58,459 nucleotides of DNA from a virus (Duplodnaviria; Caudoviricetes), in the IMG/VR virus record IMGVR_UViG_3300021957_000042, positions 1 to 58,459 of that record. The stretch is one strand, 5' to 3'. A program made the position numbers and the translations under genes. Positions 25,240 through 58,459 of this stretch are shown piece after piece. Position 1 is the stretch's first letter, and each line of letters opens with the position of its first letter. The notes under the pieces were generated by a model. The model had not been told where the DNA came from and did no database searches. It was given only the letters and a program-made list of their open reading frames with translations.

Positions 25240-25254
25240 TCAACAAAGAATTTC

Positions 25255-25314: not shown

Positions 25315-25332
25315 ACACACACGGAGCGCACA

Positions 25333-25590: not shown

Positions 25591-25598
25591 ACTTTTTC

Positions 25599-25660
25599 GA
25601 AAAAAGTTCTTGACTTTCCTGTCCAGTCTGATATGATCTGATCATAGTGATTGAGACACA
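25599..25660 (+). promoter_or_regulatory. Repeated early promoter, copy 4
   Basis: GAAAAAAGTTCTTGACTTTCCTGTCCAGTCTGATATGATCTGATCATAGTGATTGAGACACA. Confidence 0.85.
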
Positions 25661-25682
25661 CCAACCTCAAACGAGAATCGTC

Positions 25683-25922: not shown

Positions 25923-25932
25923 GGAGATGATC

Positions 25933-26145
25933 ATGTCAAAGTCAGAAATGCGACAAGCAATTGAAAATGCCATGGCTCGCTACGACAGACCAGTCGAGAA
26001 AATCGAAAAGGTCCTTGGTGAAAATCTGTTGAACAAATATACTGCCAACTATCGTGCCGGATCCGGTCAATTGAGACTTGGCAAGAACAGCAGCGGCAAG
26101 CATTGCATGTCAGAAACAGGCGGAAAGCAAAAAGCTTTTTATTGA
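25933..26145 (+). CDS. hypothetical early protein
   Basis: AAGGAG RBS. Confidence 0.7.
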   Translation: MSKSEMRQAIENAMARYDRPVEKIEKVLGENLLNKYTANYRAGSGQLRLGKNSSGKHCMSETGGKQKAFY

Positions 26146-26153
26146 AATTTTTC

Positions 26154-26200
26154 GAAAAAAGTTCTTGACATTCCTGACCAGTCTGTTAAGATCTGATCAT
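26154..26200 (+). promoter_or_regulatory. Repeated early promoter, copy 5
   Basis: GAAAAAAGTTCTTGACA-16 nt-TAAGATCTGATCAT. Confidence 0.85.
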
Positions 26201-26241
26201 GTTGAGTGATTGATTAATAACACACACAATGAGGAGCCACT

Positions 26242-29974: not shown

Positions 29975-30127
29975 ATGAAATACTCAATTTTGATTTTTTT
30001 TAGTCTTTTTATTTTTGGCTGTGGTTTAATACCTGAAGATGAACGTTATCACTCTAACGAGAGTATTAACAGTGATGATAATGCATCTGTGAACAACCGA
30101 GAGGTATTGGCAATCTTTCGAAAATAG
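29975..30127 (+). CDS. Small lipoprotein, 50 aa (not in ORF track)
   Basis: MKYSILIFFSLFIFGC lipobox; carries NES and DNAS sequons. Confidence 0.6.
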   Translation: MKYSILIFFSLFIFGCGLIPEDERYHSNESINSDDNASVNNREVLAIFRK

Positions 30128-31926: not shown

Positions 31927-32001
31927 GTGCCCATAGTTAAACGGATATAACAGTGGATTTCTACTCCTCTATTCCAGGTTCGATTCCTGGTGGGCGCACC
32001 A
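31927..32001 (+). tRNA. tRNA-Arg(UCU)
   Basis: Acceptor GTGCCCA/TGGGCGC, D arm, anticodon loop TTTCTAC, GGTTCGATTCC T arm, encoded CCA. Confidence 0.9.
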
Positions 32002-38741: not shown

Positions 38742-39386
38742 ATGTTAAAACCATTACCAATTATTTTTAAAGAGATATCAGACGCACCGACTCATCTTGA
38801 AAAAGTTCAGACATTAAAGAAAAATCGAAATGCAATGGTTGATTTGTTGCTTGAACTTACTTTTAGTAGAGATGTTATGATTACAGGTTTGCCCGAAGGT
38901 AAACCAGAAACAGTCTCAGGAGAAGCATCATTATATAATGCTCATTTGTTATATGCAAATCGCCGGCAAATTGAAATGTTTATCAATAATAATACGGCAC
39001 ATCTCAATTCAATGAAAAGAGAAAGACTTTTTTTAGATCTTATTGAGAATTTAGATCCATCTGAAGTTGTTTTATTGTGTGAAGTTAAAGATCGAAAGCT
39101 TACAAGTTTTCCTGGAATCACTCGAACAGTTATTGAAAAGATTTATGATTGGCCACTTGAGACAGTTGGTACTCCAGTAGCGCCAGAACCTGCACCAGTT
39201 GAAGAAGTTCGGGCTCCTGTAGCAGAACCTGCCCCGGTTGAAGAACCTGTGACAGCAGAACCAGAGGTTAAAGAAAAACCTGTGAAGAAAACAACAAGAA
39301 GAAAGCCAGCGGCAAAGAAAACACCGGCTAAAAAGCCAGCAACAAGGAGAAAGAAGCCAACTGCAAATACAAGTTCAACTTCTTAA
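38742..39386 (+). CDS. Conserved T4-like hypothetical protein with P/A/E and K-rich tail
   Basis: LPEG.P, KRERLF...ENL...E...L..VKDRKL..FPGIT; histone-H1-like C-terminus. Confidence 0.75.
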   Translation: MLKPLPIIFKEISDAPTHLEKVQTLKKNRNAMVDLLLELTFSRDVMITGLPEGKPETVSGEASLYNAHLLYANRRQIEMFINNNTAHLNSMKRERLFLDLIENLDPSEVVLLCEVKDRKLTSFPGITRTVIEKIYDWPLETVGTPVAPEPAPVEEVRAPVAEPAPVEEPVTAEPEVKEKPVKKTTRRKPAAKKTPAKKPATRRKKPTANTSSTS

Positions 39387-39698
39387 AATATTTTTTTCAA
39401 ACCAATGCAATATTTCAAAAGCAATTTCTGACATTTTATCTTTCAGCCCGATTTCATCAAACTTTGTTACGGCAGATTTTAAATCTTTATTGATTTGCCG
39501 TTTTAAGTCTTCCTCTTGAAATTCTTTCATATTTTCGGCAGTTAACATAATTGTTATTTTGATGATATCAGAATCATTCTCTTTATCTTTGATATAAAAA
39601 TAATAATTTGTTTTATCATTGTCAACTGTATCAATATACCTTTGAATATCTTTTATTTCTTCTCGCAATTGATGCCGAAAAATTCGAAATGTTTTCAT
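39375..39698 (-). CDS. Putative internal virion protein
   Basis: N-terminus MKTFRIFRHQLREE resembles the T4 capsid targeting sequence. Confidence 0.65.
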   Translation of the reverse strand: MKTFRIFRHQLREEIKDIQRYIDTVDNDKTNYYFYIKDKENDSDIIKITIMLTAENMKEFQEEDLKRQINKDLKSAVTKFDEIGLKDKMSEIAFEILHWFEKNILRS

Positions 39699-39699
39699 A

Positions 39700-40797
39700 T
39701 CATCCTAGGTCAAAAAGAATACTATCTGTAGGAAGTTCAAATAAAGTTCTCGGATAAACTTTATAGATCTTTTTACCCGCCTTTGTACTGCTTGCAGCTT
39801 CGATTTTATAACGCATTTGAATCAAAGGTTTATTATTAGTTGTTTCACGAATAATAATTGTTGGATCACCCTCGACTTTTGCGTGTGCTGTGAAATTAAA
39901 CTTACGAATATTTTTTTCAAATTTCTTTTCAAACCTTAAAGATTGTGCTTTCTTTTTATCAATCTTTACAAATTCAATATACTGATGTTCATCTTTTGTC
40001 ATGTGTTTACGAATAAATTTAATCAAATGTTCGACAAGGTCAATTTCACCAGAAGTTGATAACTGATTTATTTTGCTTACAATTTTTGTAAACATTGGTT
40101 TAATTGCATTACGAAGCATACTCTTTTGTTTTTCAAGTTGTGGATCTGCTCTTGTTTCATATTCAATCTTCTCATTAAAGTCACCAATATTTCGAATAAA
40201 CTCTGATTTTAATGAAGCAATATCAATATCAAATCCTTCTCGCCATAATGTATGTTGTTTATCAAATGACACACCACTAACCTGACCGAACTGTTCACCA
40301 CCTTTAGTCTTCAATGAAATTTGATTCTTTGATCGTTTACCATCAAAGACAAGTGCAATATCAACTTTTGTACCTTTTTGATCTTTTGTACCTTCACCTT
40401 TGACTTCAATCTTATTTTTTTTATTGTTCATATAATAAACTTTTGCCTGCAAGTTTAATCGGCGAGTTGTATTCACATACTCAATGCAGGCGTCAAAGAT
40501 ATCAGAAAATTGAGGCCAGTTTTTCTTTGAAGATAGATAAGTAGTTGCCTTTTGAGGTATGCTAATATCTAATTCAATAGTATCAACTGTAACATTATCT
40601 CGATCTTTTCTTGTTTCAGTTTTTTTATGTTGAATCATGATACGGTCTAACGCTTTTTCAACATCACTTTTTGAAACTTTTTGTTCTGGTTTCACCAAGA
40701 ATCTTGCTGCAAGTGCTGATGCAAAGATTGCTTCAGCAACATCACCACGATTATATTCAGGCGACTCTAATAGAAACGTTTTAAAGTTTGTTATCAT
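39700..40797 (-). CDS. Putative internal virion protein with PD-(D/E)xK-like nuclease motif
   Basis: N-terminus MITNFKTFLLE; GDVAE, KVDI...QISLK pattern. Confidence 0.6.
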   Translation of the reverse strand: MITNFKTFLLESPEYNRGDVAEAIFASALAARFLVKPEQKVSKSDVEKALDRIMIQHKKTETRKDRDNVTVDTIELDISIPQKATTYLSSKKNWPQFSDIFDACIEYVNTTRRLNLQAKVYYMNNKKNKIEVKGEGTKDQKGTKVDIALVFDGKRSKNQISLKTKGGEQFGQVSGVSFDKQHTLWREGFDIDIASLKSEFIRNIGDFNEKIEYETRADPQLEKQKSMLRNAIKPMFTKIVSKINQLSTSGEIDLVEHLIKFIRKHMTKDEHQYIEFVKIDKKKAQSLRFEKKFEKNIRKFNFTAHAKVEGDPTIIIRETTNNKPLIQMRYKIEAASSTKAGKKIYKVYPRTLFELPTDSILFDLG

Positions 40798-40832
40798 TTT
40801 TTATTTCTTTCTACAATTATTGAAATGGTATC

Positions 40833-40880
40833 TTACCAGGCTTCTTCTATATATACTCGGAATTCTTTAAATGTTTTCAT
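40833..40880 (-). CDS. 15-aa mini-ORF MKTFKEFRVYIEEAW (capsid targeting sequence only)
   Basis: Translated by hand; ATGA overlap with the stop of the upstream gene. Confidence 0.55.
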   Translation of the reverse strand: MKTFKEFRVYIEEAW

Positions 40881-42466
40881 GTGTCTTTTTGTGAATTAAC
40901 ATATTCTTGTCCCTCTTTTTCTGCTCGTTGTTTTGCGGCACGGAATGCTTGAATCACATTTTCATCTTGTTTGTTCCATTTGTTTTCATACATTCTTAGT
41001 GACTGTCGAATATCAAGCAATGGTGAACCTACACTCTTAGGATCACGATTTCCTTTCTGACGAACTAATTCTTCAAGACCAAAGATGATTGTTTCTGGTG
41101 TAATTTTGCATTCAGGCCCTTTTGATAGATAAACAGTTAAAGTATCAGGTTTTTCTTTGAGCGCAATTTTCATACAATTATTGATTACTTCTTTCATATG
41201 CCCTGTGCGGTAAAAGTCTCTGACTGTATGTGGTTCTAATTTTGCTAATATTTTCAGAACGTCTCCGCTCACTATAATACTTTGATTTCTTAGCTTCTCG
41301 AAGAAACGCCACAGACTAACACTCTCTTGTCCTTGAACGATATCACCGTTCTCAACCTTCTGAAGAAATTTAGCTTTACCTTCATCCGTTTTTTCTTCTT
41401 GGTATTTTACAATAGGTGGTTTTTTATCTTCATATGTTTTGTTCTCAATAATCTCAAGAACTTTGTATCCTCTTCTTGCCAAGAAAACTGCTTGAATTGG
41501 TTCTGCAGGATGAATCACTCTCTTACCACTTCGATCAGCAATTGAATCATAACCAATATTTGCCAATAAAACTGCCCAAGCATTTGCAAATGGATTTGTT
41601 TTGCCCTTTTCTTTCTTATCACCAGATGGTTCATAGATATGTGCGGCAGTCATCTCTGCTTTATCGCCTTTCATCTTTTGAACTTTAGTGAACACCTTGC
41701 TTAACAATTCAGCCGGAACTCTTTGTGGTTTATCAGGATCATAGTTTTGTTCAACATCTTCTTTTGAACCATAAATCCACCATGCTGACATTCTTGGCAT
41801 ATCTTCACCAATTCGGAAGTTTCTTTGATATGCTCCTTTTTCACCAGCAGTTACATTACTAGTAAGTGATTTCTTTTCATGAGCCAAAGCAACTAATGCT
41901 GAACACAATCTTGATGCATTCCAGAATTGCATTCCTGGTAGATCATTTGATGCTCGAGTAAATGCATAACGAATTGTGGCACAAACGATCAAGAAAATTA
42001 AATGCTCATTCTTGACATTCAAAATCTTCATCAGTTTTTGAGTGGTATATTTTGCAATCTTTTCAGTATCACCAGCAAGTTTAGCATTTGAATATTCACC
42101 AGAACCAACATCGTCAATATAATTTTTACCTTTACGCTGAAGTACAGCAATCTTTGGCATATGACCAGCAAATGGCACATTGAATCTTTTCCAACCTTTT
42201 CCTGGAACATAGTGGTGAAACACTTCAACCATCGGATAGGTATAGATACCATTTGGTGTATTATATCTTGACTTTGTATTCAGACCTACTTGAGCAGCAT
42301 TGTAATCATCTTTACCTGTTTCAGTAAAGTCCTTTGCATTTGTAATAAAAGTAATAAAGATATCATCATTATCTTTATATTTCTCTAATGCTTGCACAGG
42401 AAACTGCTTCACATTCTGTTCGGGATTACGTCTAGCCTCGGTAATAAAACTACGAAAAGATTTCAT
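40877..42466 (-). CDS. Putative internal virion protein, unknown enzyme (possible ART-like fold)
   Basis: N-terminus MKSFRSFITEA; TPNGIYTYP, VPFAG, GYDSIAD..IHPAEPIQAVF. Confidence 0.65.
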   Translation of the reverse strand: MKSFRSFITEARRNPEQNVKQFPVQALEKYKDNDDIFITFITNAKDFTETGKDDYNAAQVGLNTKSRYNTPNGIYTYPMVEVFHHYVPGKGWKRFNVPFAGHMPKIAVLQRKGKNYIDDVGSGEYSNAKLAGDTEKIAKYTTQKLMKILNVKNEHLIFLIVCATIRYAFTRASNDLPGMQFWNASRLCSALVALAHEKKSLTSNVTAGEKGAYQRNFRIGEDMPRMSAWWIYGSKEDVEQNYDPDKPQRVPAELLSKVFTKVQKMKGDKAEMTAAHIYEPSGDKKEKGKTNPFANAWAVLLANIGYDSIADRSGKRVIHPAEPIQAVFLARRGYKVLEIIENKTYEDKKPPIVKYQEEKTDEGKAKFLQKVENGDIVQGQESVSLWRFFEKLRNQSIIVSGDVLKILAKLEPHTVRDFYRTGHMKEVINNCMKIALKEKPDTLTVYLSKGPECKITPETIIFGLEELVRQKGNRDPKSVGSPLLDIRQSLRMYENKWNKQDENVIQAFRAAKQRAEKEGQEYVNSQKDT

Positions 42467-45844: not shown

Positions 45845-46276
45845 ATGAACAAATACGTTATTGGATTGTTGCTTATGTTTGCGGCACAATGCCATGCTGT
45901 ACCGCAAACATATGCATCAACAGATGCTTTTGATTATATTGAATATGTTTCCTGTTATGATGGTGATACATGTAAATTTAATATAGCAAATCTTCCCGAT
46001 GTCTTTGGGCAAAAATTGCCCGTCCGCTTACGAGGTATTGATACACCAGAGATTCGTGGAAAATGTAATAAAGAGAAAGAGTTAGCTTATAAAGCAAGAG
46101 ATTTTATTCGATTTTTGCTAAATAAAGCAGAAACAATTGAGCTTCGAAATATATCGAGGGGGAAATATTTTCGCATAGTTGCCGACATATATGCTGATAA
46201 TAAAAATGTATCTGAAATAATGTTATTTAATGGACATGCAAGGCTTTATGAAAGTAAAATCGATTGGTGTTCTTAG
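45845..46276 (+). CDS. Secreted thermonuclease (SNase family)
   Basis: Signal peptide; YDGDT, VRLRGIDTPE, GKYFRIVAD. Confidence 0.9.
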   Translation: MNKYVIGLLLMFAAQCHAVPQTYASTDAFDYIEYVSCYDGDTCKFNIANLPDVFGQKLPVRLRGIDTPEIRGKCNKEKELAYKARDFIRFLLNKAETIELRNISRGKYFRIVADIYADNKNVSEIMLFNGHARLYESKIDWCS

Positions 46277-46955
46277 TGTTTTAGTTCTGTTTCTCAATGG
46301 ATGTTTATCGGGATTTCTAAGACCAGATGATGTAAGTTTAGACCAGAGAGCCTGGTTTGGTTGGGGAGAAGCGTCCGGTGTTTATCAAGAAGACAAATAT
46401 CAAATTGATGAAGGAACAAAAGGTATCACATACGAAGGTATGTATGAATATCAGGTAGATACACAAAAAAGTTCTTTTGAAAGAACAAGAGGTGTCTCAT
46501 TATTGAAAACTGATTTTATTGATACCTACGATGGTGCGGATGGTTCAACTCATAAAAATAATCTCACAATTCTTCATCCATTCACATATCATATTGGTTA
46601 CGGTAGAGGATATAAACTTTTCGACGAAACAAAATTTATAGTTTCTGGTGACCTCTTCGGTGGACTTGGTCTTGATGTTTTCAGCGGAGAAAAATCTTTT
46701 TCTGATGGTAGAGTAGATGAATATCCTCAAACATTTGGTCTTGACCTATTATATGGTATCGGTCTTCTCACGATCCTAGAAATTGAAGATGGATTAACAA
46801 TAGGCTGGCATCGTATGAATATGCAAAATAAAGTTCGTATGGATTTTGGAAATGATGCCGGATTTCTCACTCAATATAATTCAACTGTATTTTTCATTGG
46901 TTGGAAATATTCAGGTAAGTCGTGCATTGATACGGCTTATGTCAAATGCGACTAA
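46248..46955 (+). CDS. Lipoprotein with outer-membrane beta-barrel-like sequence
   Basis: LVLFLNGC lipobox; alternating G/aromatic strands; VFFIGWKY near the C-terminus. Confidence 0.6.
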   Translation: MKVKSIGVLSVLVLFLNGCLSGFLRPDDVSLDQRAWFGWGEASGVYQEDKYQIDEGTKGITYEGMYEYQVDTQKSSFERTRGVSLLKTDFIDTYDGADGSTHKNNLTILHPFTYHIGYGRGYKLFDETKFIVSGDLFGGLGLDVFSGEKSFSDGRVDEYPQTFGLDLLYGIGLLTILEIEDGLTIGWHRMNMQNKVRMDFGNDAGFLTQYNSTVFFIGWKYSGKSCIDTAYVKCD

Positions 46956-47104
46956 TATCATTAAATATTTTTATGTTAGCAATTATAGCTTTTATAGTAG
47001 CAGTTCTTTTTATTACAGATGCAAAGGATGAACAAACCGCTTATGATCGAAAAGTTCAAATTCAAAAAGAGTATAATACTGATCGGAATTCTAAGTATCC
47101 TTAG
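46946..47104 (+). CDS. Small membrane protein, 52 aa (not in ORF track)
   Basis: MRLISLNIFMLAIIAFIVAVLFITD TM segment. Confidence 0.45.
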   Translation: MRLISLNIFMLAIIAFIVAVLFITDAKDEQTAYDRKVQIQKEYNTDRNSKYP

Positions 47105-47513
47105 TTTTGCTCCAACAATTGCAAATAGTTCTTCTCATACAAGAATTGAATTACCAAAACTTCGGTTTGAAACATGTTTGCTTTATCCTGTTTGTTCTTT
47201 TTATATTTTAGATGAAAGTAAAAAGAGGGCAGCGATATCTGGATTTCATCATAATAAAATTGTAATACGAATTGAACCACTTGTACATATGTCTTATTTA
47301 CGACAATGTACAAAAGAGACTTTAGGTATTGGTGATTTTCGACAAGTTATATGGATTGACTTTGCAAAAAAAATGATGGAAGCTGAAAGTATTTCGGCAA
47401 GAGGTAAAAAATTTCGTGGTATGTTATTGGGTGATGTAATCATCGACAGTCATCGTTCACAAGATGTTGTGATTCGTTTAATTGCCGATTTTTGCTCTGC
47501 TGGAGGTGTTTAA
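47043..47513 (+). CDS. Exported degenerate thermonuclease paralog
   Basis: Signal peptide; aligns by eye with the 45845 protein (C-x5-C, QCTKE vs KCNKE, GKKFRG vs GKYFR) but lacks DGDT/IDTPE. Confidence 0.55.
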   Translation: MIEKFKFKKSIILIGILSILSFAPTIANSSSHTRIELPKLRFETCLLYPVCSFYILDESKKRAAISGFHHNKIVIRIEPLVHMSYLRQCTKETLGIGDFRQVIWIDFAKKMMEAESISARGKKFRGMLLGDVIIDSHRSQDVVIRLIADFCSAGGV

Positions 47514-47540: not shown

Positions 47541-50500
47541 ATGAAGTATTTTTATATTTTATTCTTATCAATTATATCATTTACATTCACCAGTTGTGAA
47601 ATCTGTATCGGCCCAGTATGTGAGGGTCGAATTATCTATGATGACATTGAACTACCAAAAGATGATAATAGTGATTCCGGTGGTGGTTCCGGTAGTTCTG
47701 CGCCAGATCCTGTAACAGATTTATCTGCAACCTCACCTTATTCAAATCAAGTTGATCTCAGTTGGACTGCAATCACAGGTTCTGATAATTATACAATTCA
47801 TTTCAGTACAGATAATTCATCCTTTAGTGCAATAGTTCCTGATGTCACAGGAACTACCTACTCACATACTGGTAGAACCGCATCGACAACTTACTACTAT
47901 TATGTTATAGCAAACAATTCAACCGGTCCAAGTACACAATCAAACACGGCAAGTATCACTACCTCAGGCGCTCCAACTGTTACACTTACCGCAACTGCAT
48001 CCGTTGCTGAAGGAAATTCAGGCACAAAAAGTCAAACAATTACCGCAACACAAAGTGCCACATCAACTACAAACACAACAGTCAATCTCTCCACCTCAGG
48101 TACTGCTTCTGATAATGGCACTGACTACACCTTAGATAATTCAACAATTCTCATTACCGCAGGCTCGACAACAGGTACAACTTCTGTTACAATTGTTGGT
48201 GACCGTATTCAAGAAAACAATGAAACAATTGTTGTTGATATCGATAATGTTACTGGTGGTGATAACGCCACTGAAAGTGGTACACAACAAGAAACAATTA
48301 CGATCACAAATGATGACATTGCGGGCTTCAGTTTCACCATTTCAACAAACAACACGGTCACTGAATCAGGAGCAGGTGATAGTTTTGATGTTGAACTTGA
48401 TACAGAACCCACAGCAAATGTGACGGTCACAATTACCGATAATGATAGTAGTGAGATTTTAGTTTCACCTACCACACTTGTCTTCAGTTCTGGTAATTAT
48501 AGCACAGCACAAACGATCAATCTAACAGCAGTTGAAGATAATGCAACTGATGGTAATCAAACTGTAACAATCACGTTGGCTGGTAGTTCTGTTGATAGTT
48601 TTTACAATGGTGCTGCCGCACAAACAATAGCAACAGTGGTGGATTCAGGTAATGAACCACCAAGTGTTCCTGTTTCGAACTTATCAGCAACTGCTGTTTC
48701 AACAACACAAATTGATCTCAGTTGGTCGGCAAGTGCCAATACAGATAACTATACAGTTTACTTTAGCACAGACAATTCATCCTTCAGTGCGATTTCACCA
48801 GTAGTCACTAGTACATCTTATTCACATACAGGAATAACGCCAGGAACTACTTACTATTATTATCTGATTTCAAACAATGCTTATGGAGTGAGTGGTCAAT
48901 CAAATCGTGCCAATGATACAACGACCAGCATTCTTGTTGACTTATCAGCAGATATCACTTCAGTCACAGAAGGAGATACTGGTTCACAGACAATCACACT
49001 TACAGCAACTCAAAGCCAAACTGCTACAACAAATACCACTGTCACTTTGTCAGCTTCGACTGCTCCGGCTGATGCTGCTATATCAACGGGAACGGCAAAC
49101 ATTGATAAAGATTATGCTTTTGTTTCATCCACAATTACAATTACTGCCGGTTCTCTTACAGGCACAACTACTCTAAATGTATATGGTGATTATCTTGATG
49201 AAGATAATGAAACCATTTATATAAACATGTCAGGTGTTAGTGGTGGTGATGGTGCCTCAGAGAATGGAACACAAACGGCAAACATTTCAATTGTTGATGA
49301 TGATAATACAGAATTCAAATATAGCATTTTAGGAGGTGATAGTGTTGCTACAGAAGGCGGTTCTGGTATCACTTATTATATCACTTTGAATTTATATCTT
49401 GATTCAAGACCAGATGGAAATGTTTTAGTTGATTTCAGTTTAGAAGATTCAACACAACTCAGTTTGTTGGATGGACCAACATTGACGTTTACACCATCAA
49501 ATCATATGAACACACAAGTTGTTCGTGTTGCTGCTGTTGATGATCTATATGATGATGGTAACGTAACTTCGAAAGTTTATATTGATCCCAATGGCGGTAC
49601 TGCCGACACAACTGGCTACGCAAGTTTGTCACAGAAAAGTAAAAATATCACAGCAGAAGATAATGATGCGCCAGGTCCTGTGCTTGATAATGTCACCGCA
49701 GGCATTCAACAAAACTATATTTCTTGGCAAGCATTTGCTGGTGAAGATGGTGGCTATCGTTTGTATTATCGTACAACAGATGATCAACACACAGGTTCAG
49801 ATAGTTATATTACGATTGGTACAGGCATCACAGAATACTATCATAGCGGACTTGATAGTGGCCTAACCTATTATTATCGTGTAACTGCTTTTGTTTCTGC
49901 CGCAGAATCTTCAATGTCAAATTCTCTAAATGGTGTACCAACAACACCTTGGCCTGGTTGTACATCAACAGGACCTTCTGCTTCACCTTCAGATCCAACA
50001 CTTGAAGTTCATTATCCCTTTGAAAACAATGGTGAAGATTTGCTTGATAAAAATGCGAACAATGTGTATGACCTGACAAATGTTCATCCATCAAATACAA
50101 CTTTCAATTATGTTGCTGGTTGTGCTGGTGGTAAGGCACTCTATATTGATAGCACATCAGGTATTTACGCAACCAGTGCGTTTACAAGTTCAGCAGTTGG
50201 TGGGAATCTGAATTCTGGCAACTTCACAATTTCTTTCATGGCAGTTGCTGATGCGGATATGGAAACAAATAGTTCTGCTCTCAACACCGGATTCAAAGAC
50301 CTTCATTCACCTTTTGGAAGTTATGCTACAAAATCTCAATTTGATATTGGTAATTCAGATCAAATAAGATTTAGATCTCCTAGTTCAAACACGGGAGATC
50401 CTTCCGCACTAACTCAAAACACTTGGCATCATATTGTCGCAACATCAAATTCAGGACAAGATGCTGTTTTATATAAAGATGGTGTTGTAGTTGATTCGAC

Positions 50501-52172
50501 AAATACTGGAAATTTTGATGCTGATTTCTTTGGTTTAGCAATTGGTATAAACCGAGATGAAGGTTGGACAAATCGTTTCTGGAAAGGATACATTGATGAT
50601 GTCCGTGTTTATTCAGAAACAAAGTCTGTTGACCAAGTTCGAACCATTTGTATGGAATATGATGGCTGTTCATACATACCAGAAACACCAACACTCACCG
50701 CAACGGCAAGAGCAAGTTCAATCTACCTGTCTTGGAATTTGCCAACTGGAGCAGATAATGTTACAATCTATTGGCGAGAAAGTACTGGCTTTGAAGGTTC
50801 ACCAACCGCACCAACAGCAAGTAATAATGTGATCAATGCTGTTGATAATCAAACATCTTACTTTCTGGCGAACTTAGACGTTACAAATTATCATCATTTT
50901 GTCATTCTTGCAAACAATCGAAATGGTAGCAGTAGTCCAAGCTCAGTAGCAGCAACAGCAAATGTACAACCACTCAATGCTCGTTTTCGATCAACTTCGA
51001 TCAATGGTAACACTTTAGTATACATCAATCGAGATAATGAACTTTGGGTGCGAGGAAACAACTGGTCACCTTCTGAGGGCGGAAATGCTGAAATTTATTT
51101 CTCTCCAAGGAATAGCAATTTTGGTGAGCAAAATTCAGTTCATGCAGATAGTATTTCAAATGCTTCAGTGGTCGGTGCTGGTTCAAATAAGATTTCTGCT
51201 CTTTTAGATAATGGTAGTGTTTATCATTTTCACACAAATAATTCTTCCTTGTTCTGGGATAGTTATAATACTGAGACCACACCTACAAACATACCAGGTG
51301 GCACAACCATTGTTGATATGAGACATAGTTTAAAAGCAGTTTATTATTTGCTAAGTGACGGCACGATTCTTGCGAAAGGCAGAAATCATGTAGGTCAACT
51401 TGGAAATGGTACAACTACAGATGAAACTGGTTCAACAGGTGTGTTTGTTTCCGGGATCAATACAGCAACTCAAATTGCCGTTGGTATACAACATGCCTGT
51501 GCGTTGTTGTCGAATGGACAAGTATGGTGTTGGGGTGATGGAGATAAAGGTGAGCTTGGAGATGGATTAGATAGAGATTCTTCAACGCCTGTTCAAGTTT
51601 CTTTGCCTACGAATACTGCTACAATGATTGATGGTACTTATAATGATACATTTGCCTTGATGTCTGATGGGACTGTTTACGGTTGGGGCGAAAATCGTTC
51701 GGGTAAAATCAAGTGTTCAACCGATAATTCTCAAGTTCTCTCACCTGAACGTGTGTCTGGTCTATCAAACATAATTGATATTGCCGTTGGATATGAAACC
51801 GTTCATCTGTTAGAAGACGATGATAATGATGGACGTGGAACTCTGTACACCTGCGGTCGTGCCAACAAGAATTATGACCAAACTAACAATGCTGCCTTTC
51901 GTTTCTGGAATGATAATAATGGGGACATCAACTATATCTCCAGTTATAACGGTGTCGGAAACGCCATCAAAGCTGACGAATATAATAATCGTTTGATTCA
52001 GATTGATGGAGATCGATATTCACTTCTTCTAATTAGGGATGACCTCACACTGATGGGTATCGGTCAGTCACAACACAAGCAATTTTCTATCACTGATAAT
52101 AATGGCGCCAATCGAATGGTGATTTTTGATGATAATTTGCAACCGATTGAAAGTACAAATCCTATCGATTAG
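47541..52172 (+). CDS. Giant adhesin-like lipoprotein (FN3, Calx-beta/Ig, LamG, RCC1 repeats)
   Basis: FTSC lipobox; DLSW..TYYYYV FN3; EG..DE.NET Calx-beta; WHHIVAT/GYIDDVRVY LamG; HACAL..G.VWCWG RCC1. Confidence 0.85.
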   Translation: MKYFYILFLSIISFTFTSCEICIGPVCEGRIIYDDIELPKDDNSDSGGGSGSSAPDPVTDLSATSPYSNQVDLSWTAITGSDNYTIHFSTDNSSFSAIVPDVTGTTYSHTGRTASTTYYYYVIANNSTGPSTQSNTASITTSGAPTVTLTATASVAEGNSGTKSQTITATQSATSTTNTTVNLSTSGTASDNGTDYTLDNSTILITAGSTTGTTSVTIVGDRIQENNETIVVDIDNVTGGDNATESGTQQETITITNDDIAGFSFTISTNNTVTESGAGDSFDVELDTEPTANVTVTITDNDSSEILVSPTTLVFSSGNYSTAQTINLTAVEDNATDGNQTVTITLAGSSVDSFYNGAAAQTIATVVDSGNEPPSVPVSNLSATAVSTTQIDLSWSASANTDNYTVYFSTDNSSFSAISPVVTSTSYSHTGITPGTTYYYYLISNNAYGVSGQSNRANDTTTSILVDLSADITSVTEGDTGSQTITLTATQSQTATTNTTVTLSASTAPADAAISTGTANIDKDYAFVSSTITITAGSLTGTTTLNVYGDYLDEDNETIYINMSGVSGGDGASENGTQTANISIVDDDNTEFKYSILGGDSVATEGGSGITYYITLNLYLDSRPDGNVLVDFSLEDSTQLSLLDGPTLTFTPSNHMNTQVVRVAAVDDLYDDGNVTSKVYIDPNGGTADTTGYASLSQKSKNITAEDNDAPGPVLDNVTAGIQQNYISWQAFAGEDGGYRLYYRTTDDQHTGSDSYITIGTGITEYYHSGLDSGLTYYYRVTAFVSAAESSMSNSLNGVPTTPWPGCTSTGPSASPSDPTLEVHYPFENNGEDLLDKNANNVYDLTNVHPSNTTFNYVAGCAGGKALYIDSTSGIYATSAFTSSAVGGNLNSGNFTISFMAVADADMETNSSALNTGFKDLHSPFGSYATKSQFDIGNSDQIRFRSPSSNTGDPSALTQNTWHHIVATSNSGQDAVLYKDGVVVDSTNTGNFDADFFGLAIGINRDEGWTNRFWKGYIDDVRVYSETKSVDQVRTICMEYDGCSYIPETPTLTATARASSIYLSWNLPTGADNVTIYWRESTGFEGSPTAPTASNNVINAVDNQTSYFLANLDVTNYHHFVILANNRNGSSSPSSVAATANVQPLNARFRSTSINGNTLVYINRDNELWVRGNNWSPSEGGNAEIYFSPRNSNFGEQNSVHADSISNASVVGAGSNKISALLDNGSVYHFHTNNSSLFWDSYNTETTPTNIPGGTTIVDMRHSLKAVYYLLSDGTILAKGRNHVGQLGNGTTTDETGSTGVFVSGINTATQIAVGIQHACALLSNGQVWCWGDGDKGELGDGLDRDSSTPVQVSLPTNTATMIDGTYNDTFALMSDGTVYGWGENRSGKIKCSTDNSQVLSPERVSGLSNIIDIAVGYETVHLLEDDDNDGRGTLYTCGRANKNYDQTNNAAFRFWNDNNGDINYISSYNGVGNAIKADEYNNRLIQIDGDRYSLLLIRDDLTLMGIGQSQHKQFSITDNNGANRMVIFDDNLQPIESTNPID

Positions 52173-52175
52173 TTA

Positions 52176-52250
52176 TTGACATCTTATTGAATTTATGTTA
52201 CAATATTGAAACGAACAGGGAATATTTTACCCACTAACTAAATATGGGTA
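52176..52250 (+). promoter_or_regulatory. sigma70-type promoter plus late-type CTAAATA in a hairpin loop
   Basis: TTGACA(52176)-17 nt-TACAAT(52199); taccca-ctaaCTAAATA-tgggta. Confidence 0.6.
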
Positions 52251-52288
52251 TGACCTACTTTCACAAATTCATTCAATAGAGGTAACGC

Positions 52289-55200
52289 ATGAGAAGCTTG
52301 ATTGTTCTACTTTCACTCATTATGATCTCCTTTTCATTTATTAGTTGTGACCAACTTCCTGAAGAAGGTACTATTATCTATGACGTAGATTTTCCAAGAG
52401 CGGATTCTTGTGAAGCAACGGGAACTTGTAATTCTGGCGGTGGTGGCGGTGGTGGCGGTACTTATGTACCTCCTGTAATCACACCAGGAATCCCGAGTGT
52501 ACCATCAGGCGTCACAGTTGTCAATCCTACATTCACCGAAACAGAAGGAAACACACATACAGGAACAACAATAGTTCTTGATTCTGCTCCTTCAGGAACA
52601 GTGACAATCAGTTTTACTTCTGGTGATACCTCTGAAATTACAGTCAATAGTCCTTCATTGACATTCACTCCTGCCAATTACAGCACACCTCAAGTAATTG
52701 TCATGACTGCGGTAGAAGACTTCATCAACATTCCCACCGATTCAAATACAACTACTGGCATTGCCTTTAGTATCTCATCAACAAATACATCAGACCTCGT
52801 TCATGGAAGAATTGGAAATTTAGTAGGTTATGTTTTAGATTCAGGCAGAACACTCTTCACAATTGGCGGAGGAACACCAACAATACCTGAAGGTCAAAGT
52901 GATAATTCATCTTATACGTTTGTTCTGAATGATATGCCGAATGGTGTGGTCACCGTCACTCTTACTTCGACAGATACAAACGAAGTTCTCATAGGTTCGC
53001 CATTGGTTTTTACACCAGGGTCGTACAATGTTCCGCAGAATCTTTCCCTGACTGGAGTGGAGGATTACATAGTCGATGGACTTCAAGACACGAATATTAC
53101 AGTGACTTATACCAGTACCGACCCTACGGACATCCAAGATGGTGAAACAAATACTTTTATAGTCAATACAACAGATAGTGGTCAAAGTAGTGTTACTTTA
53201 GATGATGCGAATCCTTCTGTTGCTGAAGGTAGTTCTTATACAGGTACAATTGTTCTTGATGCGGCTCCAGCCGGAACAGTTACAATCACACTGACTTCTG
53301 ATGATGTAGGTGAAGCACAACTTGTACCAGATCCAACAGTCTTGACATTCACGCCCGTCAACTGGAATTCACCTCAGAATTATACTGTGAATGGTATTGA
53401 AGATTTAGAGATTGATGGTCCTGTTGAAACAAACATCAACATTGTGGCAAGTTCAACAGATCCAACAGATTCAATTCATGGCTTGAATACTTCGTTTACA
53501 ATGACCACAACTGATTCTGGCATTGATGGACCATACACAATCAATCCAACAACACCTTCAGTTACAGAAGGTACTACAGATAATATGACATTTGTTCTGA
53601 ATTATCCACCAACAGATACTGTAACAATCACGTTGACTTCAGGTGGCGCAGATGAAGCAGGTATTTCACCCACAACATTGACATTCACACCTGTCAATTG
53701 GAATTCACCTCAAACAGTGATTGTAACAGGTGTTGAAGATTTTGTAGTTGATAATGATCAATTAACTGCAATCACAACAACAATTTCTTCGAATGATTCA
53801 GTTTACGATAATTCAACAGGCTATTTCAATATCACAACAGTAGATAGTGGAAGAGGTCCTACTTCTATCACAAGTGCTGTAGCGGGAGATCAACAAGTCA
53901 CGCTCAACTGGAGTGGTCCAACTGGAATGGATGGCTATGTAATTTATTATACAAATGATGGTTCAACACCAACACTCGCAAGTGATAATGTTTCAGGTAT
54001 TTCTGGTACAGTCACATCTTATGTTCATAGTGGCCTGACCTCTGGCTTGACATACACTTATCGAATTGTTGCCAATTTAGGTTCTGATTCTTCTGGTCTT
54101 TCACCAACAGTCTCGGCAAATCTAAAACCAGCAACTCCTACTGGGCTGACTGCAACAAACCCTGGCAGTGGCACATCCATCAATCTGACTTGGAATGCTT
54201 CCACTGGTGCTGACAACTACACCGTTTACTGGACTGATGATCCAAGCACACCAATCGATCCATCCAATCCTGCTACTTATGATGGCTCCACTACTGTCAC
54301 GGGAACCTCTACAACTGCTACAGGCTTGACAGCCGGAACGCCTTATGACTTCACAATAGTTGCCACAAATAACACTGCTGGCAGTAGTCCTCCTGCTACT
54401 GAAGTCAATGCCACCCCGACTCTGATAATGCCAGCAGCCATCGATAATGTGACTGCCTATCACGGATTCTATGGTGATGCGACAATCTACACGGCTAGTA
54501 ACCCAGATAGATATTCTATTTTCCCTCCTTCATATGCCATAACATGGAATGCTCACCCTGACTTTGTTTATTCTGCCAATGGAGATTATTACAAAGTTTT
54601 TATCTCAGATAATTTGAGTCAACCCATTGATCCAACAGACAGTAGCACTTATATCAGTCAACAATGGGCTACAACGAATCAAACGGTTATTACAACTCGC
54701 CCCTTCATCACAATCGATGGCGTCACTCATAATGATGGCTTCTTGGAGAATACACCTCTAAGAATTGCTGTGGTTTTTGAGGATTATTCAAAAGGACGCA
54801 TTCTATCACCAGTAACAGAGGTCACACCAACAATGGCTTCTGAAGCCTATCGTCAATGGGGTGACCTAAGAATTCATGGTGGCTTCTTTGCGGCTGGTGA
54901 TAACAGCACACTCTATGGCTTTGGACGTTCTAATGGTAGTGACCCTATTCGCATTGAACACAAAGATATGGTCAATGTAGGTGAACGAGCAATCTTTGAT
55001 GGTGCTTGGCTCAACAGTGATGTCTTTCCCCTGATGAGTAATTCTGCTGGCTATGATTATATGTTTTTGACTTGGTACCAACCCGAAAAACCATTTTTTA
55101 ACCACAACTTCTCTACTAACGGAACATACTTTAAGAGATCCCGCACCTCTGATTGGCGGCTTGAATCAAACGCAATTTCAGCAGGTAGCGCAGTGGGAGA

Positions 55201-58120
55201 TTACGATTTCGGAATGGAGTTTCAAGCAGAAGATACGGTAGGACTGATCATTCAGCACAGTAGTAATCGCACAGGAACATTGAATGGCCCAACAGACTAT
55301 GCTGCTGTTAGTTATGCAGATTATGCTGCTGGCAATGGGCTATATTCAGCAGAGCATACAGGTACTTCACACTGGTTAGACAATTCTTCGTATGCTGGGA
55401 TGACGTTGTTCTCAACCAAAAACATGTATCAAATCAATCTTGCCAATGCGGATGCTGCAATCTCAAAAGTGGCGATTCCGTTTAAAAGTCCAGATAATCT
55501 GACAGTCACTCCATCTGGATCAAACATCAATCTCAGTTGGGATAACTCGACTTCTTTCACGAACACTTATGACATCTATCGAAGCACAGACAACAGCACA
55601 TGGAGCTTAGTCACTAGCATTAGTGGATATACAAACACTACTTATACAGACTCTTCTCTAGCTGATGGCACTTACTACTATAAGATTGGAGCGAATGGAA
55701 CTTACTTTACCCCAGACAATTCAACAGTAGCTTCGGGCGTGATTTCTACTACTCCGGCAGCCCCTGTTCTCAATTCTGTCACTGCCGGTGTTCAACAGAA
55801 CACAATTGCTTGGAGTGCTTACACGGGAGCAACTAGTTACAAGTTATACTGGGATACTTCAGCATCTGTATCAACAAGTGATAATCTGATCACCATTAGT
55901 GATAACACTTCAACCAGTTATATTCATTCTGGTAGAACAGCAGGTACTCAGTACTACTATAGACTAATTGCGACAACTTCTGGAGGAGATTCAGGACTTT
56001 CAAATGAACTGAGTGATACACCAACTGCTCTTGTTGGATGTACAAGTTCAGGTGCTGTAGCAGATAATGATCCTGACTTGTTAGTGCATTATGCTTTTGA
56101 AGGAAACTTAGAAGATGTTGAGGATACTAACGGTGATAATCGCTATGACCTGACAAATGAAGAAGGAACAATGCAATTTGCTCAAGGTTGTGCCCAGGGT
56201 CAGGCTGCTTATATTGATTCTGCTTCTGGATATGGAGTGAATAATAACTTCACAAGTACAAATGTTGGTGGAAATTTAGCAAATGACAACTTCAGTATCT
56301 CACTATGGGTAGCGAAAGACGGAGATATGGCAGACTATTCTTCTGCATTCAATACTGGCTTTTACAATGAACACACACCAACAGGAGATCAAGAAAAAAC
56401 TCAAATTGATATTCAGGCAGGTAAGTTTCGAGCAATCTCAAATAGTCCCGGTAATGGTAAAAAGGTTAGATCATCCTTCACACCAAATATGGACCAGTGG
56501 TATCATGTTACACTCACTCATAGTCCACCAAGCACTGTTTCATTATATACTGATGGTACCCTACAAGAAACCAACACGAATATGAATATAGATTTCTACG
56601 GTTTGGTTGTTGGTTTGAATCGAAGCAGAAGTGTAGGAACACTCAACTGGAAAGGATATATAGATGAAGTCAAGGTCTTCAACAGAACCTTTAGTGCGGA
56701 TGATGTTGCTGATGATTGTATGAAATCTGAAGGTTGTCCTTATGTTCCAGCAACAGCACCGACACTCTCAGCAGACGCAAGGGCTCAGGCAATCATGTTG
56801 ACTTGGAATTTGCCCGGTGGAACAGACAACGCAACCATCTATTGGAGAACAAGTGGTGGTTCGTTTGAAGGATCACCAACAGCACCTACAGCCAGTGATA
56901 ATGTGATCAATGTGACAAATGGTCAGACAAGTTACTTGCTGACTGGCTTGACTGGTGGTGATTACTATCACTTTGTGATTTTGGCAAATAATCGAAATGG
57001 TAGCAGTCCTGTCAGTTCTGTATTGGGCAATGTTCAGCCGACAAGTTTTATTGCTAACACCTTTGATTCTGGAAACAACGGAGGTATCTGTAAAATTCAA
57101 AATGATGGCAGTCTAAAATGCAAAGGCCGCAACAACTTAGATCAGTTCAATAATGACAGGATTGACCGACCAAGTGCCACTGACATTTTTGGTATCACGA
57201 ATGCGGAGACTATCACATTCTCTTCAAATAAGATTGGTGTTGTTCAGTCAGATGGGAGCTACCAGCATCGTGGAGACAATGATGGTATGAGTACACGCTC
57301 AAGTCCAGTAACTGGTGTGACGAATCCAGTGCAAGTGGAGCATGGATATAATTTTGTGGCTTACTTGATGAGTGATGGGACAGTCCGCACAAGAGGTGCT
57401 AATTACAATGGACAACTGGGTGATGGCACAACCAACAATGAAACTTCTGGTTCCGTTCAAGTCAGTGGAATCACCACAGCAAATAAGATTTCTGCAGGAC
57501 AGTATCATGCTTGTGCGCTCTTGACGAATGGTCAGATCTGGTGTTGGGGTGATAATTCATTTGGTGAGTTAGGGGATGGAACAACAACACAAAGAGAAAC
57601 TCCTGTTCAAGCAGGATTACCGACAGATACTGCTGTTGGTATTTTTGTAAGCCAAAGAACATCTGCGGCTGTTCTAGCTAACGGCAAGGTCTACATTTGG
57701 GGTTCTAATGTTAACAGCAGAGCAAAGTGCAGTAACAATACAAGTGCCATTTCAAATCCAAGAGAACTCACTGTTATTTCAAATGTGAAGCAGATTGATT
57801 TCGGATTTGGTCACTCTGTAATTCTTACAAATGATGGCAATGTCTATACATGCGGCACAGTCTACTCCACATCAAATGTAGCTGGAAATGCCACTTTCTT
57901 TGCAAGCATGGGTACTGAGGCAAAGACAAATGGAGCTATTCTGATGGATGATTATCAAGGCAGAGTGATTGAAGTCCGAGCAGACAACTACAATTCATAT
58001 ATGTTATTGGATAACGGAAGTCTTGCTTGTATCGGAGACAACAATTACGGGCAATGTAATAACGATGGTGCAACGATGGGAACAGATCAGCTAACACCAA
58101 TCATTATTCCTGATATGTAA
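52289..58120 (+). CDS. Giant adhesin-like lipoprotein paralog (4 Ig/Calx-like repeats, FN3, LamG, RCC1)
   Basis: FISC lipobox; L.FTP.N/S.N/S.PQ repeats; shares C-terminal architecture with the 47541 protein. Confidence 0.85.
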   Translation: MRSLIVLLSLIMISFSFISCDQLPEEGTIIYDVDFPRADSCEATGTCNSGGGGGGGGTYVPPVITPGIPSVPSGVTVVNPTFTETEGNTHTGTTIVLDSAPSGTVTISFTSGDTSEITVNSPSLTFTPANYSTPQVIVMTAVEDFINIPTDSNTTTGIAFSISSTNTSDLVHGRIGNLVGYVLDSGRTLFTIGGGTPTIPEGQSDNSSYTFVLNDMPNGVVTVTLTSTDTNEVLIGSPLVFTPGSYNVPQNLSLTGVEDYIVDGLQDTNITVTYTSTDPTDIQDGETNTFIVNTTDSGQSSVTLDDANPSVAEGSSYTGTIVLDAAPAGTVTITLTSDDVGEAQLVPDPTVLTFTPVNWNSPQNYTVNGIEDLEIDGPVETNINIVASSTDPTDSIHGLNTSFTMTTTDSGIDGPYTINPTTPSVTEGTTDNMTFVLNYPPTDTVTITLTSGGADEAGISPTTLTFTPVNWNSPQTVIVTGVEDFVVDNDQLTAITTTISSNDSVYDNSTGYFNITTVDSGRGPTSITSAVAGDQQVTLNWSGPTGMDGYVIYYTNDGSTPTLASDNVSGISGTVTSYVHSGLTSGLTYTYRIVANLGSDSSGLSPTVSANLKPATPTGLTATNPGSGTSINLTWNASTGADNYTVYWTDDPSTPIDPSNPATYDGSTTVTGTSTTATGLTAGTPYDFTIVATNNTAGSSPPATEVNATPTLIMPAAIDNVTAYHGFYGDATIYTASNPDRYSIFPPSYAITWNAHPDFVYSANGDYYKVFISDNLSQPIDPTDSSTYISQQWATTNQTVITTRPFITIDGVTHNDGFLENTPLRIAVVFEDYSKGRILSPVTEVTPTMASEAYRQWGDLRIHGGFFAAGDNSTLYGFGRSNGSDPIRIEHKDMVNVGERAIFDGAWLNSDVFPLMSNSAGYDYMFLTWYQPEKPFFNHNFSTNGTYFKRSRTSDWRLESNAISAGSAVGDYDFGMEFQAEDTVGLIIQHSSNRTGTLNGPTDYAAVSYADYAAGNGLYSAEHTGTSHWLDNSSYAGMTLFSTKNMYQINLANADAAISKVAIPFKSPDNLTVTPSGSNINLSWDNSTSFTNTYDIYRSTDNSTWSLVTSISGYTNTTYTDSSLADGTYYYKIGANGTYFTPDNSTVASGVISTTPAAPVLNSVTAGVQQNTIAWSAYTGATSYKLYWDTSASVSTSDNLITISDNTSTSYIHSGRTAGTQYYYRLIATTSGGDSGLSNELSDTPTALVGCTSSGAVADNDPDLLVHYAFEGNLEDVEDTNGDNRYDLTNEEGTMQFAQGCAQGQAAYIDSASGYGVNNNFTSTNVGGNLANDNFSISLWVAKDGDMADYSSAFNTGFYNEHTPTGDQEKTQIDIQAGKFRAISNSPGNGKKVRSSFTPNMDQWYHVTLTHSPPSTVSLYTDGTLQETNTNMNIDFYGLVVGLNRSRSVGTLNWKGYIDEVKVFNRTFSADDVADDCMKSEGCPYVPATAPTLSADARAQAIMLTWNLPGGTDNATIYWRTSGGSFEGSPTAPTASDNVINVTNGQTSYLLTGLTGGDYYHFVILANNRNGSSPVSSVLGNVQPTSFIANTFDSGNNGGICKIQNDGSLKCKGRNNLDQFNNDRIDRPSATDIFGITNAETITFSSNKIGVVQSDGSYQHRGDNDGMSTRSSPVTGVTNPVQVEHGYNFVAYLMSDGTVRTRGANYNGQLGDGTTNNETSGSVQVSGITTANKISAGQYHACALLTNGQIWCWGDNSFGELGDGTTTQRETPVQAGLPTDTAVGIFVSQRTSAAVLANGKVYIWGSNVNSRAKCSNNTSAISNPRELTVISNVKQIDFGFGHSVILTNDGNVYTCGTVYSTSNVAGNATFFASMGTEAKTNGAILMDDYQGRVIEVRADNYNSYMLLDNGSLACIGDNNYGQCNNDGATMGTDQLTPIIIPDM

Positions 58121-58164
58121 AACAAAAATTTATTATCTTATATTAATTATTCGAGGAGAGTAAG

Positions 58165-58459
58165 ATGAAAGTCCTGAAACTCTTATGTTTTTTAGCATTA
58201 TTATCATTTCTTGTTGGTTGTTTTGAATGTACAAATCCATTATCATTTGAAAAATGTGAAGAGGTGACATCAACAAGTTCAACAACAACATCATCTACAC
58301 CAACCACAGGTTACACATTCTCAGCAAGCTCAGTGAACGTGGCTGAGAATAGTGGTACTGGAACGTACACGGTGAAGCTGAATACAGCACCGACAGCCAC
58401 AGTCACCTTTGCGATCACATCAGATAACACTAGCCATATTACTGTCTCTCCGAGCAGTA
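58165..58459 (+). CDS. Third lipoprotein with Ig/Calx-like repeat (3'-partial)
   Basis: GAGGAG RBS; MKVLKLLCFLALLSFLVGC lipobox; VAENSGTGTYTVKLNTAPTATVT. Confidence 0.8.
   Translation, partial: MKVLKLLCFLALLSFLVGCFECTNPLSFEKCEEVTSTSSTTTSSTPTTGYTFSASSVNVAENSGTGTYTVKLNTAPTATVTFAITSDNTSHITVSPSS

Follow-up and report, generated by a model that had tools for sequence, protein, structure and literature searches.

A recurrent D-N-x-S/T motif in the giant lipoproteins of a marine T4-like phage: a possible extended N-glycosylation-type sequon

Background

The general O-glycosylation system of Bacteroidota recognizes the motif D-(S/T)-(A/I/L/V/M/T), cytoplasmic N-glycosylation is known from enzymes of the HMW1C/NGT type (GT41), and virus proteins glycosylated at unusual sites include the chlorovirus capsid and mycobacteriophage virions. 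In the accounts of acceptor specificity given in PMC4894442 and PMC12229607, the oligosaccharyltransferase PglB of Campylobacter requires Asp or Glu at position −2, and for Desulfovibrio enzymes the library screens reported there describe relaxed preferences at −2, −1 and +1, with no Asp requirement at −1 in the rules given; Desulfovibrio PglB homologues also glycosylate a native RDNAT site (PMC12229607). Here, we investigated the four-residue motif D-N-x-S/T, which recurs in giant predicted lipoproteins encoded at one end of IMG/VR virus record IMGVR_UViG_3300021957_000042. The window, by which we mean the whole stretch of DNA analysed, comprises 58,459 bases of this linear record, which CheckV rates as 32% complete. 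We tentatively interpret D-N-x-S/T as an extended N-glycosylation-type sequon, i.e., N-x-S/T with an obligatory Asp at −1, that would be read by an enzyme of the host.

Results

Enrichment of D-N-x-S/T in two giant lipoproteins

The final 12.6 kb of the window form a block of genes for exported proteins, in which two lipoproteins, P1 and P2, hold most of the sites. The lipoproteins are listed below with their lengths in amino acids (aa), and each D-N-x-S/T site, 12 nucleotides (nt) long, is given by its first nucleotide.

47541..52172, plus strand: P1, 1543-aa lipoprotein, lipobox FTSC, 15 D-N-x-S/T sites
P1 sites 1–8: nt 47784, 47811, 48111, 48135, 48243, 48261, 48438, 48537
P1 sites 9–15: nt 48744, 48771, 49203, 49686, 50754, 50844, 51207
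52289..58120, plus strand: P2, 1943-aa lipoprotein, lipobox FISC, 17 D-N-x-S/T sites
P2 sites 1–9: nt 52901, 53579, 53807, 53984, 54212, 54443, 54608, 54899, 55379
P2 sites 10–17: nt 55493, 55541, 55589, 55715, 55901, 56285, 56825, 58010
58165..58459, plus strand: third lipoprotein, lipobox LVGC, first 98 aa up to the end of the window, one DNTS at 58423–58434
29975..30127, plus strand: 50-aa lipoprotein candidate, IFGC, one DNAS at 30077–30088

By-eye counts in an earlier, sequence-only reading of this DNA proved exact: 15 of the 24 DN dipeptides in P1 (62.5%) and 17 of the 26 in P2 (65%) are DN[^P][ST], in keeping with its estimate of two thirds, and the DNTS and DNAS that it had named in the two smaller lipoproteins lie at the positions given above, although one site in 50 residues has no statistical weight. 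Shuffling the residues of each whole protein predicts 2.6 ± 1.6 sites in P1 and in P2 alike, and the observed numbers were attained in none of 3000 such shuffles and in none of 2000 shuffles each within blocks of 30, 60 or 120 residues. The enrichment (15 and 17 vs 2.6) thus outlives the correction for composition for which the sequence-only reading had called. Binomial tests based on the number of DN dipeptides and on the rate of x[ST] after Asn not preceded by Asp gave P = 2.4e-4 for P1 and 1.2e-5 for P2, and in a scan of all gapped tripeptides DN.T ranked first in P1 and P2 together (21 vs 2.9 expected, z = 10.6), as it did in their orthologue pair P0005 and P0007 (27 vs 3.4).

Only the complete motif is in excess. 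Sequons N-x-S/T without the Asp are found at expectation (29 vs 29.6 in P1, 32 vs 33.2 in P2), which is not what the archaeal/eukaryotic-type general sequon rule with any residue at −1 would give, and the same holds for DN followed by x and a residue other than Ser or Thr (9 vs 7.6 and 9 vs 8.0) and, in both proteins, for ND, NN, DD, SN, TN and GN ahead of x[ST]. The Campylobacter form [DE]xN[^P][ST] is not enriched either (6 vs 3.6 in P1, 3 vs 3.5 in P2), and the bias is specific to Asp at −1, the position named in the sequence-only reading. The bias is also confined to the exported giant proteins: the remaining 75 open reading frames (ORFs) of the window (15,178 aa) contain 49 DN dipeptides and 6 DNx[ST], where 6.3 are expected. 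Within the motif the D-N codon pairs are GATAAT (19), GATAAC (6), GACAAC (4) and GACAAT (3); since all four are in use, selection acts at the protein level, and an explanation by a DNA word was rejected.

P1 and P2 are rich in Ser, Thr, Asn and Asp, and an internal duplication in P1 repeats sites 82/91 at 402/411, both of which would favour an artefact of composition, low complexity or internal duplication. We nevertheless regard such an artefact as extremely improbable. It is contradicted by the global and local shuffles; collapsing paralogous domain positions, by our reading of their contexts, leaves about 12 and about 15 independent sites against 2.6 expected, and the reversed pattern [ST]xND occurs at expectation (2 vs 2.5 per protein).

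From its lipobox onwards, P1 is composed of FN3, Calx-beta, Big-like, FN3, Calx-like, FN3, LamG, FN3 and RCC1 domains, and P2 of four Calx-like repeats, FN3 domains, a domain of about 220 aa without a family, LamG, FN3 and RCC1; the two are 42% identical over their C-terminal 835 residues. Pfam scores were 54.4 and 82.8 bits for fn3 (cut-off 25), 43.2 for Calx-beta (27), 56.9 and 62.8 for Laminin_G_3 (27.6) and 71.9 and 52.3 for RCC1 (21.7). The lipobox cysteine predicted in all four window lipoproteins (FTSC, FISC, LVGC, IFGC) is kept in the orthologues within canonical boxes (VSGC, LAGC, QTGC, LISC). The G+C content at third codon positions (GC3) of P1 and P2, 0.24–0.31, is in line with that of the phage backbone, so their higher total G+C stems from amino-acid composition and not from recent transfer. 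The domain without a Pfam match in P2 (54839–55486, residues ~851–1066) is conserved in the related proteins P0007, P0133, P0151 and P0065.

Short conserved modules stand directly behind the cysteine that is predicted to be lipid-modified, at 47598–47640 in P1 (C-x-x-IC-IG-x-(V/I)C-(E/D)G) and at 52346–52400 in P2 (C-D-x-x-EGTI(V/I)YDVDF), and recur in P0005, P0007, P0034, P0133, P0272 and the metagenomic loci L002, L011 (8181–8582) and L015. They could be sorting or anchoring signals, and because they are common to phage and bacterial proteins, the phage versions probably take the route of the host proteins to the surface.

Sequence context of the motif

To describe the motif, 66 proteins of the family (55,501 aa) were pooled, for which ORFs from metagenomic loci had been admitted on an S+T+N+G+D content of at least 42%, irrespective of the motif; their 819 DN contexts reduce to 322 non-redundant ones. 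At +2 from the Asn, 149 of these have Thr and 67 have Ser (67% vs a background of 25%), which is 3.55 and 1.7 times the background, respectively, with a Thr:Ser ratio of 2.2 (background 1.07). Proline occupies x in 2 of the 216 sites, where 7.4 are expected, and in 5 of the 106 non-sites, and x is otherwise widely variable and mildly hydrophobic. In its avoidance of Pro at x and its preference for Thr over Ser the motif has the properties of an N-x-S/T core. At −2 of the 216 sites Asp and Glu stand at 0.6 and 0.8 times the background, contrary to the Campylobacter rule. Positions +3 and +5 are hydrophobic (V/I 2.4-fold, L/F/I 1.5- to 2.5-fold), from which it follows that the motif regularly leads into a strand. 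A calcium-binding loop was rejected, as +2 is depleted in Asp (0.22×), Asn (0.56×) and Glu (0.63×).

Distribution among related lipoproteins

Every close relative shows an observed-to-expected ratio (O/E) of 6–13, with D-less sequons at expectation. The share of DN dipeptides followed by x[ST] is 20 of 30 in P0005, 19 of 32 in P0007, 12 of 14 in P0034, 17 of 31 in P0133, 22 of 25 in P0151, 23 of 31 in P0161 and 54 of 64 (vs 4.3 expected) in P0272. When metagenomes were scanned with an alignment that covered the LamG-FN3-RCC1 part, 51 loci were found. Marine loci L005–L049 encode LamG lipoproteins of 250–2400 aa in which almost all DN are followed by x-S/T, for example 16 of 16 in L039, 10 of 10 in L025, 12 of 13 in L030, 16 of 19 in L034 and 19 of 24 in L038; in the distant loci L050–L053 and in L001, no ORF has three or more motifs.

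L004 is syntenic with the window over 40.8–58.4 kb and contains the complete third lipoprotein (825 aa, RCC1), in which 16 of the 17 DN are followed by x[ST] (1.3 expected), and L044 is a fragment of another T4-like phage (gp45, gp44) with a 375-aa LamG lipoprotein (5 of 7). L004 covers 22 kb of a record of 346,126 bp, about twice the genome size implied by 32% completeness for 58 kb, and this record may represent either a concatemer or a relative of much larger size.

Other family genes occur in the context of a bacterial chromosome, next to a phosphonate ABC transporter, PhoU-like, MFS, PHO4 and GAPDH genes in L008, L010 and L011, and next to alanine racemase, ribosomal proteins L25, S6 and L9, Pth, YchF and DnaB in L027, L028 and L031, and the ORFs beside them that do not belong to the family have almost no motifs. 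L027, L028 and L031 are one locus in near-identical genomes of a single lineage. In these three, a 619-aa membrane protein of the Sulfatase family (LtaS/EptA-like) is divergently oriented to the DNx[ST]-rich LamG lipoprotein (L031:2387–4246, L027:1706–3565, L028:7453–9312) and is a possible modifying enzyme.

Searches of other collections returned little. P1 had a single result in INPHARED, an RCC1 match in Synechococcus phage S-SRM01, and P0127 in a scan of GTDB genomes had only an RCC1 match in Myxococcota; in IMG/VR, P0007, P0003 and P0272 had no matches and P0001 had one relative (L002), and the ESM Atlas returned generic LamG clusters only, with scores of at most 0.80.

Conservation and gain of sites

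Between P2 and P0007, which are 73% identical, 16 of the 17 motifs persist while x and the hydroxyl residue vary (e.g., DNSS/DNTT, DNMT/DNTT, DNST/DNVT and DNLS/DNAS). The controls are kept less often: 14 of 29 D-less sequons (Fisher P = 2e-4), 7 of 15 D[^N]x[ST] and 5 of 9 DN without S/T. P0133 and P0151 show the same trend when compared with P2, and the alignments point to purifying selection on the whole motif in the P2 lineage. P1 and P0005 (69% identical) have 6 and 11 lineage-specific sites, respectively, where chance would give no more than 2.6 and 3.0 overall.

Comparison with known glycosylation systems

With the acceptor sites of Campylobacter PglB the motif shares the N-x-S/T core, a required upstream acidic residue, the preference for Thr over Ser, the disfavour of Pro at x, and targets that are exported by Sec to the periplasm or surface, lipoproteins included. 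It differs in the position of the acidic residue (−2 there, −1 here), in that the window yielded no PglB, and in its density, which at about one site per 100 aa over 1500–3500 aa is far above that of native Campylobacter substrates as we know them. Desulfovibrio (Desulfobacterota) is one of the old 'delta' proteobacteria, as is SAR324, a marine lineage considered below, which NCBI places under Deltaproteobacteria; the Desulfovibrio PglB homologues accept a native site that contains DNAT, yet the specificity described in the studies cited above is relaxed and includes no −1 Asp rule, whereas here D-less sequons have no enrichment at all. As in chloroviruses and mycobacteriophages, the protein that would carry the glycans is encoded by the virus; those viruses, however, use cytoplasmic transferases of their own on virion proteins, whereas here the proteins are lipoproteins destined for export and the window yielded no phage transferase.

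No GT41 enzyme was detected in Pfam scans of the three lipoproteins and 37 further window ORFs or in a PHROG scan of 55 ORFs. The ORF at 14106–15062 is poorly supported as a candidate transferase, as it has a sub-threshold GT8 match only (E = 3.7e-4, 20.6 bits, cut-off 24.3) and nothing in PDB or NCBIfam. Full-text literature searches found no enzyme with a −1 Asp rule and no description of a D-N-x-S/T acceptor motif; the DNXT strings that these searches turned up belong to the DNXTZNX[T/S] motif inside STT3 itself.

The motif might also signal a different modification, i.e., O-glycosylation or a phospho-form on the Ser/Thr at +2, or another modification of the Asn by an enzyme other than STT3/PglB. 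The hydroxyl residue is the one most strongly selected after D-N, the Bacteroidota O-glycosylation system offers a precedent for a short Asp-anchored motif on the exported proteins of one lineage that is detectable by statistics alone, and a LamG lipoprotein gene adjoins the Sulfatase-family gene. This alternative is nonetheless improbable. The Bacteroidota motif D[ST][AILVMT] is not enriched and if anything depleted (7 vs 12.0 in P1, 7 vs 13.3 in P2), the motif found here needs Asn and a spacer of one residue, we know of no reason why an O-linking enzyme should strictly require the Asn, and the Sulfatase adjacency occurs in a single lineage.

Structural context

In 30 non-redundant LamG domains, 88 sites are spread over 21 alignment columns, 7 of them recurrent, with subsets of columns that vary by subfamily, and at least six different positions carry sites in FN3. 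An AlphaFold2 model of P2 residues 600–1255 (mean predicted local distance difference test score, pLDDT, 59.1) places D-N, at all 8 sites of its modelled part, in coil, in a short helical turn (one site) or on the first residue of a strand; 5 of these sites lie in 10-residue blocks with a pLDDT of at least 70 and 3 in blocks of 43–77. Two further sites fall in P2 851–1066, where the model gives no placement (pLDDT ~24).

Proteins with the same folds from elsewhere served as controls. Generic RCC1 proteins (n = 114, from homology searches) have 171 motifs against 106.0 expected, and the 107 of 128 FN3/Calx proteins without individual significance have 312 against 239.2, corresponding to an O/E of only 1.3–1.6. 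In all five outliers of the RCC1 set the motif occurs solely at two fixed positions, 'LLDNGS..CWG' and 'GQLGDNTT', and in all 12 outliers of the FN3/Calx set that do not belong to the family each tandem repeat has it at a single fixed position (FN3 'W-DN[AS][ST]-NE.GF', FN3 'RS.DN.TW' or an interdomain linker 'DND[ST]'). Since unrelated bacteria have DNx[S/T] at set places within tandem repeats, a purely structural origin is possible for the motif. These fixed motifs share the four residues in FN3 B-C and C-C' loops, the RCC1 hairpin and cadherin-like linkers, but they occupy one position per repeat with x restricted to D/E, A/S or G, whereas the family studied here has many positions per domain, a free x and a preference for Thr. 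One FN3 subfamily, found in P0222, P0225, P0243 and P0252 from unrelated bacteria, carries an invariant B-C loop 'W-(T/V)-DN[AS][ST]-NE.GF.IE' in 9–17 copies per protein, which may be a structural motif or a modification site.

The main rival explanation is accordingly that D-N-x-T forms a favourable turn ahead of a β-strand in FN3, LamG, Calx and RCC1 domains, was taken up at many loops of this Asn/Asp/Thr-rich protein class and carries no modification. It is in line with the fixed repeat positions, the hydrophobic residues at +3 and +5, the placement of D-N in the model, and a LamG column in which 'N-F-[ST]' is retained even where Gly replaces the Asp. We consider it less likely than the sequon interpretation, because the O/E of generic proteins of the same folds is far below the 6–13 of the family, and because Asx motifs usually tolerate exchange of Asp and Asn, yet ND, NN and DD before x[ST] stand at expectation. 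A turn also does not predict the 2.2:1 preference for Thr or the depletion of Pro at x, many non-equivalent positions are occupied, and lineage-specific gains exceed chance.

Candidate host

The sequence-only reading had pointed to similar proteins in marine SAR324 bacteria, and the source labels agree with it: SAR324 cluster bacterium is the label of P0268, P0269, P0277 and P0151, the last of which shares 79% identity with P2 across half of the query, and Deltaproteobacteria bacterium that of P0281. For the GAPDH encoded next to the family gene of L008, the named relatives bear only the labels '[bacterium]', '[Pseudomonadota bacterium]' and '[Deltaproteobacteria bacterium]' (89% identity), which is compatible with SAR324 and no proof of it. 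The bacterial members of the lipoprotein class are likely to belong to SAR324-type bacteria, and we think it reasonably probable that the phage infects such bacteria. Full-text searches returned no literature linking SAR324 to N-glycosylation or pglB. An archaeal host was rejected, as two Poseidoniaceae/Euryarchaeota RCC1 proteins have the motif solely at the fixed RCC1 hairpin, and is also contradicted by the sigma factor, peptide deformylase and peptidoglycan hydrolases of the phage.

Genome context

Gene content marks the window as part of the genome of a marine T4-like myovirus. In PHROG and Pfam scans it has the core genes of T4 replication and late transcription, with PHROG matches to a gp41-type helicase, a gp55-type late sigma factor, the gp47/gp46 nuclease, the gp45 clamp, the gp44/gp62 clamp loader and RegA, and also accessory genes usual in marine phages (PhoH, CobS-like ATPase, peptide deformylase, 2OG-Fe(II) oxygenase, GMP-reductase-like and OMP-decarboxylase-like proteins, a Mom-family protein and an endolysin); the phage structural genes lie beyond the window. 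The gp44 clamp loader is at most 43.5% identical to those of cultured phages (cyanophages, Methylophilales phage Melnitz and Pelagibacter phage HTVC008M), and similarity therefore yields no host. A look-up of sequencing runs found a 10-kb stretch of the window in marine, seawater and estuary metagenomes, with at least half of the sampled words in 18 runs; the 20 holder runs overall come from 9 studies and include no single-cell genome and no RNA run. Further features of the window are as follows.

22722–23705: Mom-family DNA-modification protein (PF25680, E = 2.6e-42)
31927–32001: tRNA-Arg(TCT), the sole tRNA
39375–42466, minus strand: the sole minus-strand block of the window, three ORFs of 107, 365 and 529 aa
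45845–46276, plus strand: SNase-type nuclease with N-terminal signal peptide, immediately preceding the lipoprotein block
45845..47513, plus strand: upstream exported genes, i.e., the SNase-type nuclease, a 241-aa lipoprotein (LNGC) and a 164-aa membrane or exported protein

The upstream exported genes (45845..47513) contain no DNx[ST], and from the SNase-type nuclease onward their order in L004 is the same as in the window. The three minus-strand ORFs have no Pfam or NCBIfam family, and L004 encodes a counterpart of the 529-aa one in the corresponding position. Two islands, 24154–27237 and 34080–35618, have a GC3 of 0.36–0.55 against about 0.2 in the backbone, contain an HNH endonuclease, small unknown ORFs, an AAA-like protein and a helicase (phrog_1967), and are probably recent insertions.

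Discussion

The interpretation of D-N-x-S/T as an extended sequon follows from its match, in the core, the Thr preference, the depletion of Pro and the upstream acidic residue, to the acceptor sites of oligosaccharyltransferases; the restriction to exported surface proteins, the free x, the many non-equivalent loops and the lineage specificity argue for it as well. In the mechanism that we infer, the phage lipoproteins would be exported by Sec and then lipidated, and while they are emerging unfolded into the periplasm an oligosaccharyltransferase-like enzyme of the host would glycosylate the Asn of each D-N-x-S/T, every site being predicted to lie in a surface loop or in the first residues of a β-strand. 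The infected cell, probably a SAR324-type marine bacterium, would then carry on its surface giant proteins with many glycans, in imitation of the lipoproteins of this class that the host itself exposes.

Several observations weigh against this interpretation. DNx[ST] is a recurrent fold-level loop motif in unrelated bacteria and archaea, and about 6 of the 32 window sites lie in such fold contexts (P1 91, 411 and 1223; P2 1085, 1101 and 1908). The sequence-only reading had named a mere structural turn as what would undo it; that objection is borne out in part, for these sites. The bias is not tied to one structural position, and 12 (P1) and 14 (P2) sites are left against 2.6 expected when the six are removed. 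Between P1 and P0005, 9 of 15 motifs are kept, no better than the 19 of 28 D-less sequons, as a structural origin would allow. From these alignments we would read the P2 lineage as conservation and the P1 lineage as turnover at maintained density, but the P1 pattern equally fits a weakly constrained motif. In the bacterial loci, the exported PhnD, BamB-like lipoprotein and FecR-like protein, a small sample, are without the motif. The window, 32% of the phage, contains no STT3/PglB oligosaccharyltransferase (PF02516) and no recognizable protein glycosyltransferase. The SAR324-labelled contigs are binned and short (1.2–7.6 kb, one of 30 kb), and some could be phage fragments binned with their host. 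Finally, no oligosaccharyltransferase known to us demands Asp at −1.

Should the sites nevertheless prove to be purely structural, a single four-residue loop motif would have been recruited at dozens of non-equivalent positions in four folds. If the sequon interpretation is true, D-N-x-S/T would be a new acceptor specificity for bacterial protein glycosylation, undescribed for any oligosaccharyltransferase, and the new pair of sequon and enzyme would be of use for glycoengineering. More cautiously still, we propose that SAR324-type bacteria possess a general N-glycosylation system with a D-N-x-S/T sequon, and that the giant lipoproteins of their widespread T4-like phages, packed with the sequon, are sugar-coated by this host machinery; this would be the first case of a bacteriophage that exploits host N-linked glycosylation. 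N-glycosylation would then extend to a globally abundant, uncultured marine lineage. The giant FN3/LamG/RCC1 lipoproteins could mask receptors, and so exclude superinfection, or alter the adhesion of the infected cell, and a phage that dresses its exported proteins in host glycans would matter for how particles adhere in the ocean as well as for superinfection exclusion and the masking of receptors.

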